Below the pieces are notes generated by a model, which worked only from the letters and a program-made list of their open reading frames with translations, was not told the DNA's origin and ran no database searches. Shown piece by piece: positions 27,167 to 30,579 of a stretch of DNA of 32,947 nucleotides. How positions within the stretch are numbered: the first letter of the stretch is position 1; each line of letters opens with the position of its first letter. This stretch comes from a virus: the UHGV virus genome UHGV-0038968; one strand, given 5' to 3'. Made by a program: the position numbers and the translations under genes.

Positions 27167-27995
27167 GACGATGCCCTCCGCTGATATTCAGGAGACGGTG
27201 AATATGAAAATTAGCCTTATCCGCCAGACGAATACGTTCAGCTTGCAAGTTAAGAAGGGTTTCTACCAGAACCTGATGTGCCTGCGGATCCGAAAGAGTT
27301 ACCTTGCGCAGAGCACGTAGTGCAGTTGTTACATAACTGAGTTTATGTAAGTCTTCATCATTCAGACGAGTGAGGGCTGGGACAGTAGCCATGATGGCAG
27401 CCTCCTTGATCGGTGAAATACTTCCACCACCGGAAACGCCAATTTCGCTGGTGGTGAACTGAACGGGGTTGGCGTAACCGGTGATCAAGGAAACCGGCGC
27501 ATCTTTCGATGCCCCCGCCCAGCCCACCATAACTTTGATGTGAGCAAATGCGGACGATAAAAAAGACGCTGGCGCGTCATATATCGCCTTGATCAATTCC
27601 AGGACGCCAATCCCGGCACCCGCTTTATAAGGTGCCTGAACAGTGTAACGTCCCGGAATGGCAGAATCAATGTGCTGGTGGTCCTTCACACTCAACAAAA
27701 TCACGCCTGAATTTCCACAAAGGGCTAAAGCACTCATGCGGGTAGTCTTTGCGAAGATAGATAACGCGCTGTGTTTCTGACTCCCAACGAATAACATGAA
27801 CATAAAGTCCTCTTCCGTCACGAAACCAGCGGTTAAGTTCCTGCACAACTCGCCCCCCACAGTCAGGTAAAGTTCTCTGTGGTTACTTACAGCCAGGAGA
27901 TTTGGTAATCTGCATTCATGCCGTAACAACACGTGTTCAGCGACGCTGACCACCAGCTGTTGCGACAAACGGTTATTTGCCGTTAAACTGTTCAT
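27159..27995 (-). CDS. Hypothetical protein (278 aa), unknown function, early-right operon
   Basis: Long ORF tightly packed between the CII/YdaT-like gene and the small ORF; no motif recognised (no Walker A). Confidence 0.55.
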   Translation of the reverse strand: MNSLTANNRLSQQLVVSVAEHVLLRHECRLPNLLAVSNHRELYLTVGGELCRNLTAGFVTEEDFMFMLFVGSQKHSALSIFAKTTRMSALALCGNSGVILLSVKDHQHIDSAIPGRYTVQAPYKAGAGIGVLELIKAIYDAPASFLSSAFAHIKVMVGWAGASKDAPVSLITGYANPVQFTTSEIGVSGGGSISPIKEAAIMATVPALTRLNDEDLHKLSYVTTALRALRKVTLSDPQAHQVLVETLLNLQAERIRLADKANFHIHRLLNISGGHRHA

Positions 27996-28561
27996 GCGTT
28001 AGTTTCTCCACAACCAGAAGCAATCGACGCCACGACGCCCGGAGCTGCACACTCGCGGGCGTCATTACTTTCTGAAATGCAAAAGATTTTGTAGACCAGT
28101 GCTGCATGCTCCTGCAGCTTCGAAATTGAGAGATACAGCTCGTCGTTAATTGCTGTCTTCTCATGCGGTTCCACTACACCGTCTTCGATTGCTGAACGAA
28201 TCTGTTTTGAATAACTGCCGATCTGTTCAATGACTTCCAGCAGACGCTGGTTAATATCGGCGTTGTCCACATCCTCGACGTCAGGAAGAGACACAAAGAC
28301 GCCATTTGCAGACTGCGCCACAGCGTCAGCAATGAAGTGAGTTCCACCAGCACGTTGCAAAATCATTGCCCATCCCAGCGGGAAAATCTGATCGCCATCG
28401 GCACGAAGGCGGTTAAATAATGCGTTCTCTGTTACATCCAGCCAGTCAGCTGCTTCAGCGTAACCACCCGGCAACTTTGCGATAGTTTTTCTGACAGCTT
28501 TCACGTACCACTCAGGCTGTTTTTCTACTTTCCAGTGATGCTTACCCACGGTTAGCCTCAT
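27992..28561 (-). CDS. CII-like / YdaT-like early regulatory protein (putative)
   Basis: 189 aa; second gene after cro on the rightward operon, the position CII-type regulators occupy; assignment tentative. Confidence 0.4.
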   Translation of the reverse strand: MRLTVGKHHWKVEKQPEWYVKAVRKTIAKLPGGYAEAADWLDVTENALFNRLRADGDQIFPLGWAMILQRAGGTHFIADAVAQSANGVFVSLPDVEDVDNADINQRLLEVIEQIGSYSKQIRSAIEDGVVEPHEKTAINDELYLSISKLQEHAALVYKIFCISESNDARECAAPGVVASIASGCGETNA

Positions 28562-28592
28562 CGTTCTGTGGTTAAAAATTGAAAGTGTTCTG

Positions 28593-28793
28593 CTAATCTT
28601 TCGGATAGATATCCGGTCTTAAGTCAGATTTCGTAATTGCACCTGACGTGCATTGCTCAAGTTTTTTAGCCAGCACAAAACTGGCTTTTTTATAGCCATT
28701 GAAAACCAGCCGTAAGTAGCCAGGTGTTGAGCCAACTTTTCCGGCCAACTCGCCCTGCTGTTCTTTGGTTAAAGAGTCCCAATACGCTTTCAT
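28593..28793 (-). CDS. Cro-like (YdaS/Cro family) HTH regulator
   Basis: 66 aa from internal ATG at 28793 (MKAYWDSLTKEQQGELAGKVGSTPGYLRLVFNG...); the longer track ORF would overlap cI; divergent from cI across an operator region; GGAGGT upstream. Confidence 0.65.
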   Translation of the reverse strand: MKAYWDSLTKEQQGELAGKVGSTPGYLRLVFNGYKKASFVLAKKLEQCTSGAITKSDLRPDIYPKD

Positions 28794-28883
28794 ACAATAT
28801 GTACCTCCGGTGTACATATTACATGATTGAAATGAACCTTCAAGATACTTGTACCTTAACGGTACAAGGGTTTTAATTTCGTT
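28794..28883. promoter_or_regulatory. Right operator/promoter region between cro and cI
   Basis: Two palindromes: ATGTACC-TCCGG-TGTACAT (28799-28817) and CTTGTACC-TTAAC-GGTACAAG (28847-28868); candidate minus-strand promoter TTGAAG (28838-28843) and TAATAT (28816-28821). Confidence 0.55.
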
Positions 28884-29558
28884 ATGAAAACAATCCATGA
28901 CATCCGGCGGTCTAACGCCAGAAAATTGAGAGATGGTGTTGGCGGGAATTCTTCCTTTGCCACTATGATTGATCGCGAGCCAACCCAGACCAGCAGGTTT
29001 ATGGGAGATGGTGCTACTAAAAATATCGGTGACAGCATGGCACGACACATCGAAAAATGTTTCGACCTGCCTGTCGGATGGCTCGATCAAGAACACCAGA
29101 CAACGAACATCACAAAAAAACCTGATGTTTCAATCACTAATAAACAAATCACATTAGTCCCTGTCATATCATGGGTACAGGCCGGAGCATGGAAAGAAGT
29201 TGGATATTCTGAGGTTGATTTGAGCACAGCAGAAACGTATCCCTGCCCTGTACCCTGTGGGGAAATGACTTATATCTTGCGGGTGATAGGTGATTCAATG
29301 ATTGATGAGTACCGCCCGGGAGACATGATTTTTGTCGATCCTGAAGTACCTGCCTGCCACGGTGACGACGTTATTGCATTGATGCACGATACAGGCGAAA
29401 CCACCTTCAAAAGGTTGATAGAAGATGGGACACAGCGTTATCTCAAAGCGTTAAACCCAAACTGGCCTGAGCCTTACATTAAGATCAACGGTAATTGCTC
29501 TATAATTGGTACAGTGATTTTCTCAGGAAAACCAAGAAGATACAAAATCAAAGCCTAA
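28884..29558 (+). CDS. CI-type repressor with C-terminal LexA-like S24 autopeptidase domain
   Basis: 224 aa; N-terminal HTH region, C-terminal VIGDSM (Ser) and TTFKRL (Lys) motifs of S24 peptidases; divergent from cro. Confidence 0.85.
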   Translation: MKTIHDIRRSNARKLRDGVGGNSSFATMIDREPTQTSRFMGDGATKNIGDSMARHIEKCFDLPVGWLDQEHQTTNITKKPDVSITNKQITLVPVISWVQAGAWKEVGYSEVDLSTAETYPCPVPCGEMTYILRVIGDSMIDEYRPGDMIFVDPEVPACHGDDVIALMHDTGETTFKRLIEDGTQRYLKALNPNWPEPYIKINGNCSIIGTVIFSGKPRRYKIKA

Positions 29559-29572
29559 TCAATGTTTATGAA

Positions 29573-29593
29573 CCTGCTTCGGCAGGTTTTTTT
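29573..29593 (+). terminator. Intrinsic terminator after the repressor gene
   Basis: CCTGC-TTCG-GCAGG followed by TTTTTTT. Confidence 0.7.
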
Positions 29594-29597
29594 ATAC

Positions 29598-29631
29598 TTG
29601 ACAATGTACCTTTGGGATACATAATGTACCC
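29598..29631 (+). promoter_or_regulatory. pL-like promoter with overlapping operator
   Basis: TTGACA (29598-29603), 16-17-nt spacer, CATAAT/ATAATG; palindrome ATGTACC-TTTGG-GATACAT (29604-29622) of the same form as the right operator, plus another ATGTACC at 29624-29630. Confidence 0.6.
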
Positions 29632-29751
29632 AAGCGAAACAACGAACAGGCAGGACGCCCACGAAGTAGCCGCCTGGGGCATATGAAGTCCAGGATGATT
29701 CGTTGAGTCATGTTGTGCCACTAGGCACTCATGTTAAAGCAGGTGTATGAA

Positions 29752-30027
29752 ATGAAAGTCCAGATTTTAAACAATAACTGTGAAGTCGTTTGGTCATACG
29801 ACATAGCCGCCCCTGTAGATCAGAGCGGCGATAGCTGGACCAATGGGAAACATCAGATTATGGCTGGAGTTGTGTTCTCTTTACGCCGTGCTTTGGAACA
29901 GGCTGAAGTATTTCCATCAGACCCTGAATGGAAATGGCCTTTTTCTATTTGTCCAAATTCGGAGAGCACATTTCAGAAAATTGGTCAGAAAGTCGCACTC
30001 GAAGAGCATCAGCCAACTGTTTCCTGA
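29752..30027 (+). CDS. Hypothetical protein (91 aa), first gene of the leftward early operon; not N-like
   Basis: Start at MKVQ with AGGTG 6 nt upstream (track ORF begins 29731 without SD); no Arg-rich motif. Confidence 0.5.
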   Translation: MKVQILNNNCEVVWSYDIAAPVDQSGDSWTNGKHQIMAGVVFSLRRALEQAEVFPSDPEWKWPFSICPNSESTFQKIGQKVALEEHQPTVS

Positions 30028-30190
30028 TTTTTTCAGGTAACTCGTCGGCATCGCAGAAACAACAACGCTCGATCATGTTGAAAGCCGATTCGTAGAACTG
30101 TTTCTGCTGAGTGTCGCTGAGACAGGAAAAGAGCGACGTTACGATGATTTTATTAATTGCATTATCAAGTTCTTTTTCATCAAAAGTCAT
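29945..30190 (-). CDS. Hypothetical protein (81 aa), convergent and 3'-overlapping with the previous gene
   Basis: AAGGAAA 6 nt upstream of the ATG; overlaps 29945-30027 with the plus-strand ORF, so one of the two may be spurious. Confidence 0.4.
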   Translation of the reverse strand: MTFDEKELDNAINKIIVTSLFSCLSDTQQKQFYESAFNMIERCCFCDADELPEKIRKQLADALRVRLSDQFSEMCSPNLDK

Positions 30191-30445
30191 TTGATTTTCC
30201 TTTTATGTATACGGGCTTAAAAGGATACCACCGAGCCTGAAGTGGTGAAAAGACAGGCACATAACAGCTAAGTATTTTCAACCAGAGAGAATCCTTAGCG
30301 TTGTGGTGAATGCGGCTCAGCGCACGCGGGTTAAGGTTGAGGCTGACAGTCGACCTTCTGTGGATACCCACCCGTCTGGTGTGCAACCTTCGCCAGGCAC
30401 CGGGAGGCACCCGGCACCACAACTTTATGCTGTGTGTAGTCCTGG

Positions 30446-30490
30446 CGGTACCAGTTTGTACCCTTGCTTCCGGCTGGTACCGTCCTTTTT
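30446..30490 (+). terminator. Intrinsic terminator-like hairpin in the GC-rich non-coding region
   Basis: CGGTACCAG (30446-30454) pairs with CTGGTACCG (30474-30482), 19-nt loop, then TCCTTTTT. Confidence 0.5.
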
Positions 30491-30579
30491 ACAAAACAGA
30501 GAAGAGCATCACCGGACGACGGGCTCATAACCCAATCCATCCGGGCGGCTGCTACCGCAGGTGTTCTTCTCTGTTTTGT
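30491..30579. repeat. 15-bp perfect inverted repeat with 59-bp spacer, upstream of the yfdP-like gene
   Basis: ACAAAACAGAGAAGA (30491-30505) and TCTTCTCTGTTTTGT (30565-30579). Confidence 0.5.

Follow-up and report, generated by a model that had tools for sequence, protein, structure and literature searches.

Genes and regulatory features of the locus

The immunity region of the window (the whole stretch of viral DNA analysed here, 32,947 nucleotides long) is composed of two divergent genes, the sequence that separates them, and a terminator and promoter lying past the second gene (Table 1). The first gene, named cro in the record of Shigella phage SfV, encodes a protein identical to YmfT of Escherichia coli K-12 at 65 of its 66 residues, which matches phrog_35 ("transcriptional repressor") and, weakly, the Pfam family YdaS_toxin/HTH_3. 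The second encodes a repressor identical over all 224 residues to YmfK of the K-12 element e14. The sequence ATGTACC-N5-GGTACAT occurs in five copies in the window, three between cro and cI (OR1, OR2 and OR3) and two on the early-left promoter (OL1 and OL2). The sequence-only reading that drew attention to this locus had described two cro-cI palindromes with ATGTACC half-sites, which are present exactly as it read them (OR1 and OR3), as is the same 19-bp form lying over a strong TTGACA/CATAAT promoter (OL1). Its proposal of right and left operators holds as far as computation can probe it, but OR comprises three sites and not two, while OL comprises two. The feature ends at 29642, slightly past the 29631 given earlier.

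Table 1. Positions of genes, promoters, terminator and putative operators in the window
Feature	Position	Strand	Sequence and remarks
cro-like gene	28593..28793	-	66 aa; YmfT/CroE homologue; opens the rightward early (PR) operon
OR1 (putative operator)	28799..28817		ATGTACCTCCGGTGTACAT; 24.8 bits; covers the predicted PR start (28809-28813) and 2 bp at the end of the PR -10
Predicted PR -10	28816..28821	-	TAATAT; from sequence and positional conservation
OR2 (putative operator)	28832..28850		ATGAACCTTCAAGATACTT; weaker site, 12.1 bits; centre at -43 relative to the start of cI transcription
Predicted PR -35	28838..28843	-	TTGAAG; 16-bp spacer; inside OR2
OR3 (putative operator)	28849..28867		TTGTACCTTAACGGTACAA; 23.2 bits; lies over the cI maintenance promoter, on its -35 and spacer
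cI maintenance promoter (PRM-like)	28849..28877	+	-35 TTGTAC (28849-28854), 17-bp spacer, -10 TTTAAT (28872-28877)
cI-type repressor gene	28884..29558	+	224 aa; putative N-terminal DNA-binding domain (about residues 1-75); S24 domain
Intrinsic cI terminator	29570..29596	+	8-bp GC-rich stem (29570-29589), T-run
pL-like early-left promoter	29598..29625	+	TTGACA (29598-29603), 16 bp, CATAAT (29620-29625); 11/12 match; predicted start about A29632
OL1 (putative operator)	29604..29622		ATGTACCTTTGGGATACAT; 25.1 bits; occupies the whole pL spacer and runs 3 bp into the -10
OL2 (putative operator)	29624..29642		ATGTACCCAAGCGAAACAA; 13.2 bits; left half over the end of the pL -10 and the predicted start

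The motif is strongly concentrated at these two places. Searching the 33-kb window for ATGTACCNNNNNGRTACAT with up to two mismatches yields 8 strand-matches against 0.22 expected, a number reached in none of 100 shuffles, and all eight are confined to the OR and OL regions. A weight matrix built from homologous loci alone, the window being left out of its training, gives 23 to 25 bits to OR1, OR3 and OL1; the best match outside the OR and OL regions reaches 8.6 bits, and the maxima of 50 shuffled sequences average 9.4 bits, with a top value of 17.4 bits. The scores of OR2 and OL2 lie inside the range of the best shuffled matches and are not significant on their own; their position and half-sites, however, are kept in all relatives. 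Beyond the five sites, the motif scan reveals none in the window, nor any in the e14 region (15.6 kb).

Conservation of the putative right and left operators

The comparison set includes 17 loci, the window and 16 diverged relatives whose cI proteins are 73-88% identical to the repressor. Among them, half-sites and site spacing are constant and the 5-bp spacers are free. The three OR sites, which overlap both PR and the cI promoter within 90 bp, are kept in all 17. In OR1, TGTACCTCC and TACA are unchanged throughout, and the cro Shine-Dalgarno sequence (GGAGG, minus strand) lies within the spacer. OR2 displays an invariant TGAACC, a right half that is mostly GGTAC, and a constant distance to the cI ATG. 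The left half of OR3 is the same in 17/17 loci and its right half is one base off in two of them (L014 and L020), with 14 different spacers represented.

The promoters overlapped by these sites are conserved to different degrees. The PR -10 position is occupied by CATAAT, TAGAAT or TATCCT in relatives, and the TTG of the -35 (CAA on the plus strand) is kept in 16 of the 17 loci, L014 having TTT; the consensus promoter scan leaves PR uncalled, its match being only 8/12. Upstream of cI, a TNTAAT-type hexamer is found 6 nt before the ATG in 16/17 loci and 7 nt before it in L019, and the bases in between vary. The cI transcript starts at A28884 of the ATG and is leaderless, as follows from the identical K-12 sequence, in which the ymfK start has been mapped experimentally to the A of the ATG (leader 0; PMC4681348). 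The supplement of that study, searched for the PR and pL starts, gives only that of ymfK.

Past the repressor gene, the terminator, which is also annotated in the SfV record, shows a stem that varies among relatives by compensatory changes (AACCTGC/GCAGGTT, AACCCGC/GCGGGTT and GAGCCTGC/GCGGGCT). The pL-like promoter begins 2 bp past its T-run, and TTGACA...CATAAT is invariant in the 17 loci; its equivalent is annotated as a promoter in the record of phage Ayreon. OL1 keeps its half-sites unchanged, and its spacer takes at least 12 different forms among viral contigs. OL2 possesses a degenerate right half (G.AACA); in 119 viral contigs its left half is invariant and G[AC]AACA predominates in the right one. 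Homology to phages of the same immunity type stops at about position 29641, and homology to phage SfII starts at 29637. The lambda-like layout put forward beforehand is thus borne out in its order of cI, terminator and pL, but not in the spacing of its sites. Centre-to-centre distances are 33 bp between OR1 and OR2, 17 bp between OR2 and OR3, and 20 bp between OL1 and OL2, constant in all relatives, and the 23-24 bp characteristic of lambda operators is not found in this module. OR2 and OR3 abut, their centres being about 1.6 helical turns apart. Given this arrangement and the 33 bp from OR1 to OR2, pairwise cooperativity of the lambda kind should not be taken for granted.

Linkage of the motif to the repressor gene

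The idea of one motif serving one repressor at both ends of its gene gains from the invariant half-sites and free spacers of the 17 loci, and from the linkage of OL, cI and OR in viral contigs. When contigs were picked by the pL/OL composite pattern alone (n=103), the composite was found to adjoin a YmfK-homologous repressor in 102 of them, and the OR composite was present in 103/103. Module swaps provide a complementary view. In phage SfII the layout is the same, but the cI is another one and so is the motif, at OR as well as at OL: its OL displays TTGCATATNTCGCAA twice, its OR harbors related TTGCGC/CACGCAA elements, and beyond OL about 110 bp of SfII sequence precede the leader DNA that it has in common with the window. 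Pseudomonas phage BR133a presents the reverse case, having a repressor that shares the N-terminal domain only (59% identity), an OR with TGTACC-N5-GGTACA three times in the same three-site layout, and a different gene, of 112 aa, at the cro position.

The repressor protein

The S24 domain reported earlier for the repressor is clearly present: the match to Peptidase_S24 (Pfam PF00717) has an E-value of 1.5e-26 and scores 92.8 bits, the cutoff being 23.3. The segment PVISWVQA|GAW aligns with PVFSHVQA|GMF of lambda cI, which predicts cleavage between Ala100 and Gly101, and the motifs GDSM (Ser138) and TFKRL (Lys176) align with GNSM and TFKKL of lambda. The QA|G site, the serine and the lysine are invariant among 17 homologues.

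The N-terminal domain, searched alone against Pfam, has no match even at E = 10. Its residues 1-75 align end to end with residues 2-76 of the Rep protein of Salmonella phage SPC32H (PDB ID: 5d50_A; phmmer E = 5e-4), and it also matches phrog_12107/5736 ("transcriptional repressor"). A DNA-binding role is therefore putatively assigned to it, on the basis of the match to SPC32H Rep and of the correlation seen in BR133a. A single-sequence AlphaFold model of the repressor had a pLDDT of 31 and was discarded.

Proposed mechanism of the switch

The ATGTACC palindromes are very probably binding sites by which a known prophage repressor would shut both early promoters flanking its gene. We consider it highly likely that the module functions as an immunity switch of the e14/SfV type, with operators at PR, pL and the cI promoter and with RecA-stimulated cleavage of the repressor as its induction route. 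We infer physical binding of repressor dimers to 17-19-bp operators, (A)TGTACC-N5-GGTACA(T), as well as an order of occupancy among the sites. Dimers at OR1, on the PR -10 and start, and at OR2, on the PR -35, would block rightward expression of cro, the ymfL-like gene and further genes. At -43 from the leaderless cI start, OR2 would moreover stand at the position used by lambda cI to activate PRM, whereas OR3, on the -35 and spacer of the cI promoter, would set a ceiling on repressor synthesis. OL1 in the spacer and OL2 on the -10 and start would occlude pL, which is predicted to read toward the early-left, xis and int genes. Upon DNA damage, active RecA would stimulate self-cleavage at Ala100-Gly101 by the Ser138/Lys176 dyad, cooperative dimer binding would be lost and both arms would be derepressed, after which the Cro-like protein would presumably hold cI off through the same operators.

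Damage induction is documented for prophages carrying this module. In K-12, AZT raises 17 of the 22 e14 genes about 36-fold, in both arms (ymfJ, ymfH, xisE and intE; ymfT, L, M and N). This induction is lost in a lexA3(Ind-) strain and has been reported as dependent on LexA cleavage. The e14 genes form one iModulon with sulA and recN, and the iModulon study ascribes the e14 regulon to YmfT. The gene sfiC (= ymfM) is inducible by RecA441 and reported to be free of LexA repression. Phage SfIV, whose cI is identical to the window repressor, was isolated by UV induction.

Alternative explanations

The lexA3 phenotype would also be expected if host LexA directly controlled both early promoters through weak SOS boxes, the palindromes being incidental or used by Cro only, and SOS reviews indeed place ymfE, ymfI and intE under a "potential SOS box". 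Box scans nevertheless led us to drop this reading, which we now regard as quite improbable. With at most one mismatch, CTGT-N8-ACAG is absent from OR (28794-28883) and from the surroundings of pL (29560-29700), its count over the window (16 against 11.4 expected) is at the level of chance, and the 20-bp consensus has no match with up to three mismatches. The palindromes read TGT-N11-ACA, as opposed to the TGT-N10-ACA of LexA, and the reported independence of sfiC from LexA repression also speaks against direct control. Lambda induction is itself impaired in lexA(Ind-) hosts, in which RecA amplification is blocked. The lexA3 result is for this reason non-discriminating, being compatible with direct LexA control and equally with an indirect need for RecA amplification. 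Similarly small is the probability that the palindromes serve the Cro-like YmfT alone, or another regulator of the region (the CII-like YmfL homologue, for example), with other targets for the S24 repressor. Cro does accompany these operators and is a conserved protein (e.g. GYLRLVFNGYKKA), and the iModulon study credits it with the e14 regulon; BR133a, however, combines TGTACC operators and the repressor N-terminal domain with another gene at the cro position, OL directly follows cI and moves with it, and the placement of OR2 and OR3 on the cI promoter is as expected for autoregulation. To our knowledge, cI and Cro use common operators in all lambdoid switches studied, so that binding by Cro would be an addition to repressor binding, not an alternative to it.

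Of all the explanations weighed, the one we hold to be least credible, and very improbable indeed, is that the inverted repeats reflect chance or RNA/DNA hairpins, OR3 being terminator-like. It draws on a terminator scan that reports a stem-loop at 28848-28868 followed by GGTTTTAATT. Chance is excluded by the motif count, the weight matrix and the linkage in viral contigs. As for hairpins, the same half-site recurs at five sites and is unchanged in relatives, without compensatory substitutions, whereas the stem of the genuine cI terminator does covary; OR3 was rejected as a hairpin or terminator since its arms do not covary and the T-tract past it is not conserved. A last alternative, improbable as well, if a shade less so than control by LexA or by Cro alone, retains the operators as proposed and replaces self-cleavage by an antirepressor, in the style of SPC32H or Gifsy Rep. 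SPC32H Rep (PDB ID: 5D50) is inactivated by Ant, a LexA-controlled antirepressor; the N-terminal domain of the window repressor is nearest to that of this protein, and such a route would also account for the lexA3 dependence. Against it stand the full S24 C-terminal domain and the intact Ala-Gly, Ser and Lys residues, conserved in 17 homologues, and we know of no antirepressor in e14.

A bolder proposal goes beyond the repressor-operator switch with RecA-stimulated cleavage, and we advance it tentatively, as a little short of an even prospect. It holds both that the five YmfK/CohE operators, and not weak LexA boxes or YmfT, directly cause the SOS-induced e14 regulon of K-12, and that the rigid non-lambda geometry reflects a binding mode other than cooperativity between adjacent dimers. 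This geometry, with OR2 and OR3 abutting and OR1 three helical turns away, is also found in BR133a, which has the N-terminal domain alone in common. A Rep-like dimer of dimers is one possible binding mode.

Significance of the proposed operator map

In the literature searched, which did not extend to the primary papers on the SfV genome (2002) and the e14 analysis (2004), no binding, footprint or cleavage study of YmfK/CohE was found; nor was a DNA motif given for YmfK, which is called there only a "putative repressor" or "SOS-sensitive repressor". The strong damage induction of e14 has been put down, in recent work on K-12, to weak LexA boxes or to YmfT. A map of five operator sites with promoter positions offers a simpler and directly testable account. 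Its value is practical: a y-gene regulator of K-12 gains an explicit set of mapped operators, and regulon databases gain a motif. Furthermore, the same immunity type is found in roughly one complete E. coli genome in four (1324/5426 contain the module), and in Stx2c-, CdtI- and serotype-converting phages; the map should therefore predict superinfection-immunity groups and the induction behaviour of medically relevant prophages.

Comparison with known systems

The module belongs to the e14/SfV group of lambdoid prophages, whose immunity switch it forms. This is an ordinary lambda-type switch and not a novel kind of system; it was largely known already, being part of the K-12 reference genome. 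The cryptic prophage e14 (ymfK/cohE, ymfT/croE) has each of the five sites and a 90-bp OR that is 100% identical; in OL/pL it departs from the window at one spacer base of OL1 and one of OL2, and the DNA differs past about position 29704. The window belongs to an apparently complete SfV-like prophage, whereas e14 is a 15-kb remnant. Phages SfV (U82619) and SfIV match window positions 28500-29800 at 98-99% identity. Annotated in the SfV record are cI, cro, the terminator and, corresponding exactly to window positions 28799-28867, a "putative operator region"; downstream of cI the record carries no promoter or operator annotation. OR was thus annotated previously as a putative operator region, while the individual sites and the OL/pL assignment are absent from the SfV annotation.

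As in lambda, a tripartite operator separates the divergent cI and cro genes, and the leftward early promoter, which follows cI and is oriented as cI is, carries another operator. Both systems have a leaderless cI mRNA and an operator placed near -42/-43 relative to the maintenance promoter, and both repressors possess an S24 C-terminal domain, an Ala-Gly site and a Ser/Lys dyad. In contrast, the operator sequence is different, each site being 19 bp long with a free 5-bp spacer. The OR sites of lambda are 24 and 23 bp apart, centre to centre; the different spacing seen here is a difference of architecture, not of kind. OL possesses two sites instead of three and lies about 0.8 kb from OR, as compared with 2.4 kb in lambda, there being no rex genes here. 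Neither N nor cIII is reported, the cII-like gene is of the P2/186 CP76 type, unlike that of lambda, and a lambda-type N-terminal domain is not detectable in the repressor. The N-terminal domain is instead alignable from end to end with that of SPC32H Rep, a tetramer that lacks self-cleavage and is removed by Ant. The window repressor differs from SPC32H Rep by its C-terminal S24 domain with intact catalytic residues.

Identity of the module

The element is the e14/SfV immunity region, long known; an existing annotation marks its OR as a putative operator region. Shigella phage SfV is 98% identical to the region, and SfIV, the cdtI phage, a set of Stx2c-converting phages and others are 96-99% identical. 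In the SfV GenBank record the genes are labelled cI and cro, a terminator is marked 3' of cI, and a "putative operator region" maps exactly to 28799-28867 of the window; in RefSeq they are called ymfK and ymfT. E. coli K-12 carries, in its cryptic prophage e14, a YmfK that matches the repressor at 224/224 residues and a Cro that matches at 65/66; the intergenic DNA is 100% identical. Of 5426 complete E. coli genomes, 1324 contain the cassette (28590-29645) at ≥95% identity, some in as many as 3 copies; in 5 places it lies on a plasmid. By these matches, the immunity type is known and very common. Stx2c- and CdtI-converting phages also carry it. The gene after cro, a ymfL homologue (SfV orf36; 27992-28561, minus strand), matches Pfam Phage_CP76 "regulatory protein CII" and phrog_101 "CII-like transcriptional activator"; the SfIV genome paper describes SfV and SfIV as devoid of cII.

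Features of the immunity region (PR elements and operators are predicted)
Feature	Position	Strand	Sequence	Remark
cro	28593-28793	minus		66 codons, read from the window sequence
cro-cI gap				90 bp, flanked by the two genes
OR1	28799-28817		ATGTACCTCCGGTGTACAT	cro-cI gap
PR -10	28821-28816	minus	TAATAT	conserved hexamer; CATAAT, TAGAAT or TATCCT in relatives
OR2	28832-28850		ATGAACCTTCAAGATACTT	weaker site, ≤2-mismatch search
PR -35	28843-28838	minus	TTGAAG	16 bp upstream of -10
OR3	28849-28867		TTGTACCTTAACGGTACAA	cro-cI gap
cI promoter -10	28872-28877	plus	TTTAAT	TNTAAT type, conserved position
cI	28884-29558	plus		224 codons, read from the window sequence
cI terminator	29570-29589 (stem)			GC-rich hairpin and T-run, 3' of the plus-strand gene
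pL	29598-29625	plus	TTGACA-16 bp-CATAAT	11/12 to consensus; starts two bases after terminator
OL1	29604-29622		ATGTACCTTTGGGATACAT	spacer of pL
OL2	29624-29642		ATGTACCCAAGCGAAACAA	weaker site, ≤2-mismatch search

Probable operators and promoters

The sequence-only reading had described ATGTACC palindromes at both ends of the repressor gene, one of them on a strong promoter. Re-reading shows this description to be accurate, and the palindromes are real and highly non-random: ATGTACCNNNNNGRTACAT with at most two mismatches gives 8 strand-matches in the window against 0.22 expected, all in the OR and pL places. The three sites of that reading were found as described; its list was incomplete, as there are five, OR2 and OL2 having been missed. 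A weight matrix trained on relatives only scores OL1, OR1 and OR3 at 25.1, 24.8 and 23.2 bits, OL2 and OR2 at 13.2 and 12.1, and the next-best window match at 8.6. Since maxima in 50 shuffles average 9.4 bits and reach 17.4, OR2 and OL2 are supported by position and conservation, not by score.

OL1 is centred at about -19 from the predicted pL start, and OL2 lies over the last bases of the -10 and over this start (centre at about +2), the same relation as that predicted for OR1 and PR. The PR hexamers, not called by a consensus scan (8/12 match), would place OR1 over the -10 end and start site, and OR2 over the -35. In 16 of the 17 loci a TNTAAT-type hexamer lies 6 nt 5' of the cI ATG (in the remaining one, L019, the distance is 7 nt), the intervening 6 nt being variable, and a leaderless cI mRNA is therefore predicted. 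By differential RNA-seq in K-12, the ymfK transcript begins with the A of its ATG (leader 0), and ymfK is presented there among five E. coli mRNAs that lack a leader (PMC4681348). Taking 28884 as +1, the left half of OR3 provides the cI promoter -35 (TTGTAC), OR3 as a whole reaches from -35 to -17, and the centre of OR2 falls at -43. In lambda, cI bound to OR2 at about -42 activates PRM.

Conservation, linkage and module exchange

A protein-based scan (one genome per species) yielded 16 loci, from Klebsiella, Atlantibacter, Leclercia, Pantoea, Rahnella, Edwardsiella and others, with repressors 73-88% identical. In ungapped comparison, the OR sites lie at a constant 84, 51 and 34 nt from the cI ATG (two loci longer by 1 nt), and the half-sites TGTACC, TGAACC, TTGTACC and G-TAC are unchanged. 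Nearly every locus has its own 5-bp spacers in OR2 and OR3; the first three OR1 spacer bases are invariant because they complement the cro Shine-Dalgarno sequence. Every relative has the cI terminator, its stem varying by compensatory substitutions, followed in all loci by an invariant TTGACAATGTACC-N5-G[GA]TACATAATGTACC.

Searching IMG/VR with the pL/OL composite alone, without protein information, returned at least 120 contigs. Among the matches listed with ≥900 bp upstream, a YmfK homologue (70-100% identity) lies directly upstream in 102 of 103, and the OR1-OR2-OR3 composite is present in 103 of 103; most of 119 viral contigs, again among the matches listed, have G[AC]AACA as the right half of OL2.

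Two phages represent natural module swaps. SfII shares the DNA downstream of pL from 29637 onward, with different cI and cro; it has TTGCATATATCGCAA and TTGCATATCTCGCAA at the OL position and related TTGCGC/CACGCAA elements at OR. The 263-residue repressor of Pseudomonas phage BR133a has only residues 1-71 in common with YmfK (59% identity), and its divergent intergenic region carries TGTACCTCCTGGGTACA over the leftward gene's Shine-Dalgarno, then abutting TGTACCGTCAAGGTTCT and TGTACATTTCTGGTACA, the same three-site layout as in the window's OR. These swaps indicate that the motif tracks the repressor's N-terminal domain and OL the cI gene. Homology of the cdtI and Stx2c phages to the window stops at ~29641, the OL2 edge, which delimits the exchangeable cassette.

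SfII has its own operator motif (L029 620-720, 1465-1510), with TTGCATAT[AC]TCGCAA twice on the promoter after the cI terminator and the TTGCGC/CACGCAA elements between cI and cro; ~110 bp after OL follows the same leader DNA as in the window. In BR133a (vB_Pae_BR133a, L028), two CTGTATATACA[GA]AG copies (2327-2342, 2374-2388), resembling an SOS-box-like palindrome, lie downstream of the repressor gene, at the position of OL in the e14 type.

DNA downstream of pL

The pL leader (29650-29712, plus strand) contains an invariant stretch, CAGGCAGGACGCCCACGAAGTAGCCGCC, then a hairpin (CCNNN, loop GGCRTATGAAK, NNNGG) in which three pairs are replaced on both sides without loss of pairing, in as many as 5 of 10 loci; the element overlaps with a 7-codon ORF. 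This element belongs to the early-left operon, as it also follows the unrelated SfII immunity module, and could be a nut/put-like antitermination or processing element. Two convergent ORFs overlapping by 83 bp (29731-30027, plus; 29945-30190, minus) correspond to phrog_3195 and phrog_3311, conserved phage ORFs without assigned function, and recall the overlapping ymfJ/ymfI of e14 at the same place. Further downstream, on the same strand as pL (30270-30492, plus), is a full-length match to Rfam STnc100 (RF02076), with 41.2 bits (E = 1e-7), below the gathering score of 47. STnc100, a prophage sRNA family, is related to PasD in a 2026 preprint.

The repressor and damage induction

The S24 domain assigned by the sequence-only reading is borne out: residues 93-212 match Peptidase_S24 (E = 1.5e-26). 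Alignment to lambda cI C-terminal structures superposes QA|GAW on QA|GMF, GDSM on GNSM and TFKRL on TFKKL, thereby placing the cleavage site at Ala100-Gly101 and the dyad at Ser138 and Lys176, all kept in 17 homologues. Pfam gives no match for the first 75 residues. From end to end, this segment aligns with the N-terminal domain of Salmonella phage SPC32H Rep (PDB 5d50, E = 5e-4), and a TQxSR segment in the likely recognition helix is invariant in the 17 homologues.

With AZT, 17 of 22 e14 genes rise ~36-fold, among them ymfJ, ymfH, xisE and intE of the left arm and ymfT, L, M and N of the right (PMC11228462). A single co-expression module groups these e14 genes with sulA and recN. RecA441 induces sfiC (ymfM), which is reported as not LexA-repressed, and SfIV, whose cI is identical to the window's, was obtained by UV induction. 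These in vivo data fit a single SOS-sensitive repressor on both arms. The AZT study, in which induction is lost in lexA3, ascribes it to weak LexA boxes, without mention of the e14 repressor (PMC11228462). A scan for LexA boxes found no box at OR or pL, and across the window no more than chance would give. Lambda induction, too, suffers in lexA(Ind-) hosts, where RecA cannot be amplified, so that loss of induction in lexA3 is compatible with repressor self-cleavage. The operator map offers a simpler explanation for the SOS induction of e14.

Comparison with known systems

Conservation, linkage, module-swap covariation, the mapped transcription start and the conserved catalytic motifs together support right and left operators for one S24 repressor, as the sequence-only reading had proposed. 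We infer repressor binding, activation from OR2, a role of Cro and RecA-dependent cleavage. Novelty is low, the useful outcome being an explicit map of operators and promoters for a K-12 y-gene regulator. The lambda-like layout holds for the order cI, terminator, pL and fails for site spacing: centre-to-centre distances are 33 bp (OR1-OR2), 17 bp (OR2-OR3) and 20 bp (OL1-OL2), unlike the 24 and 23 bp of lambda operators.
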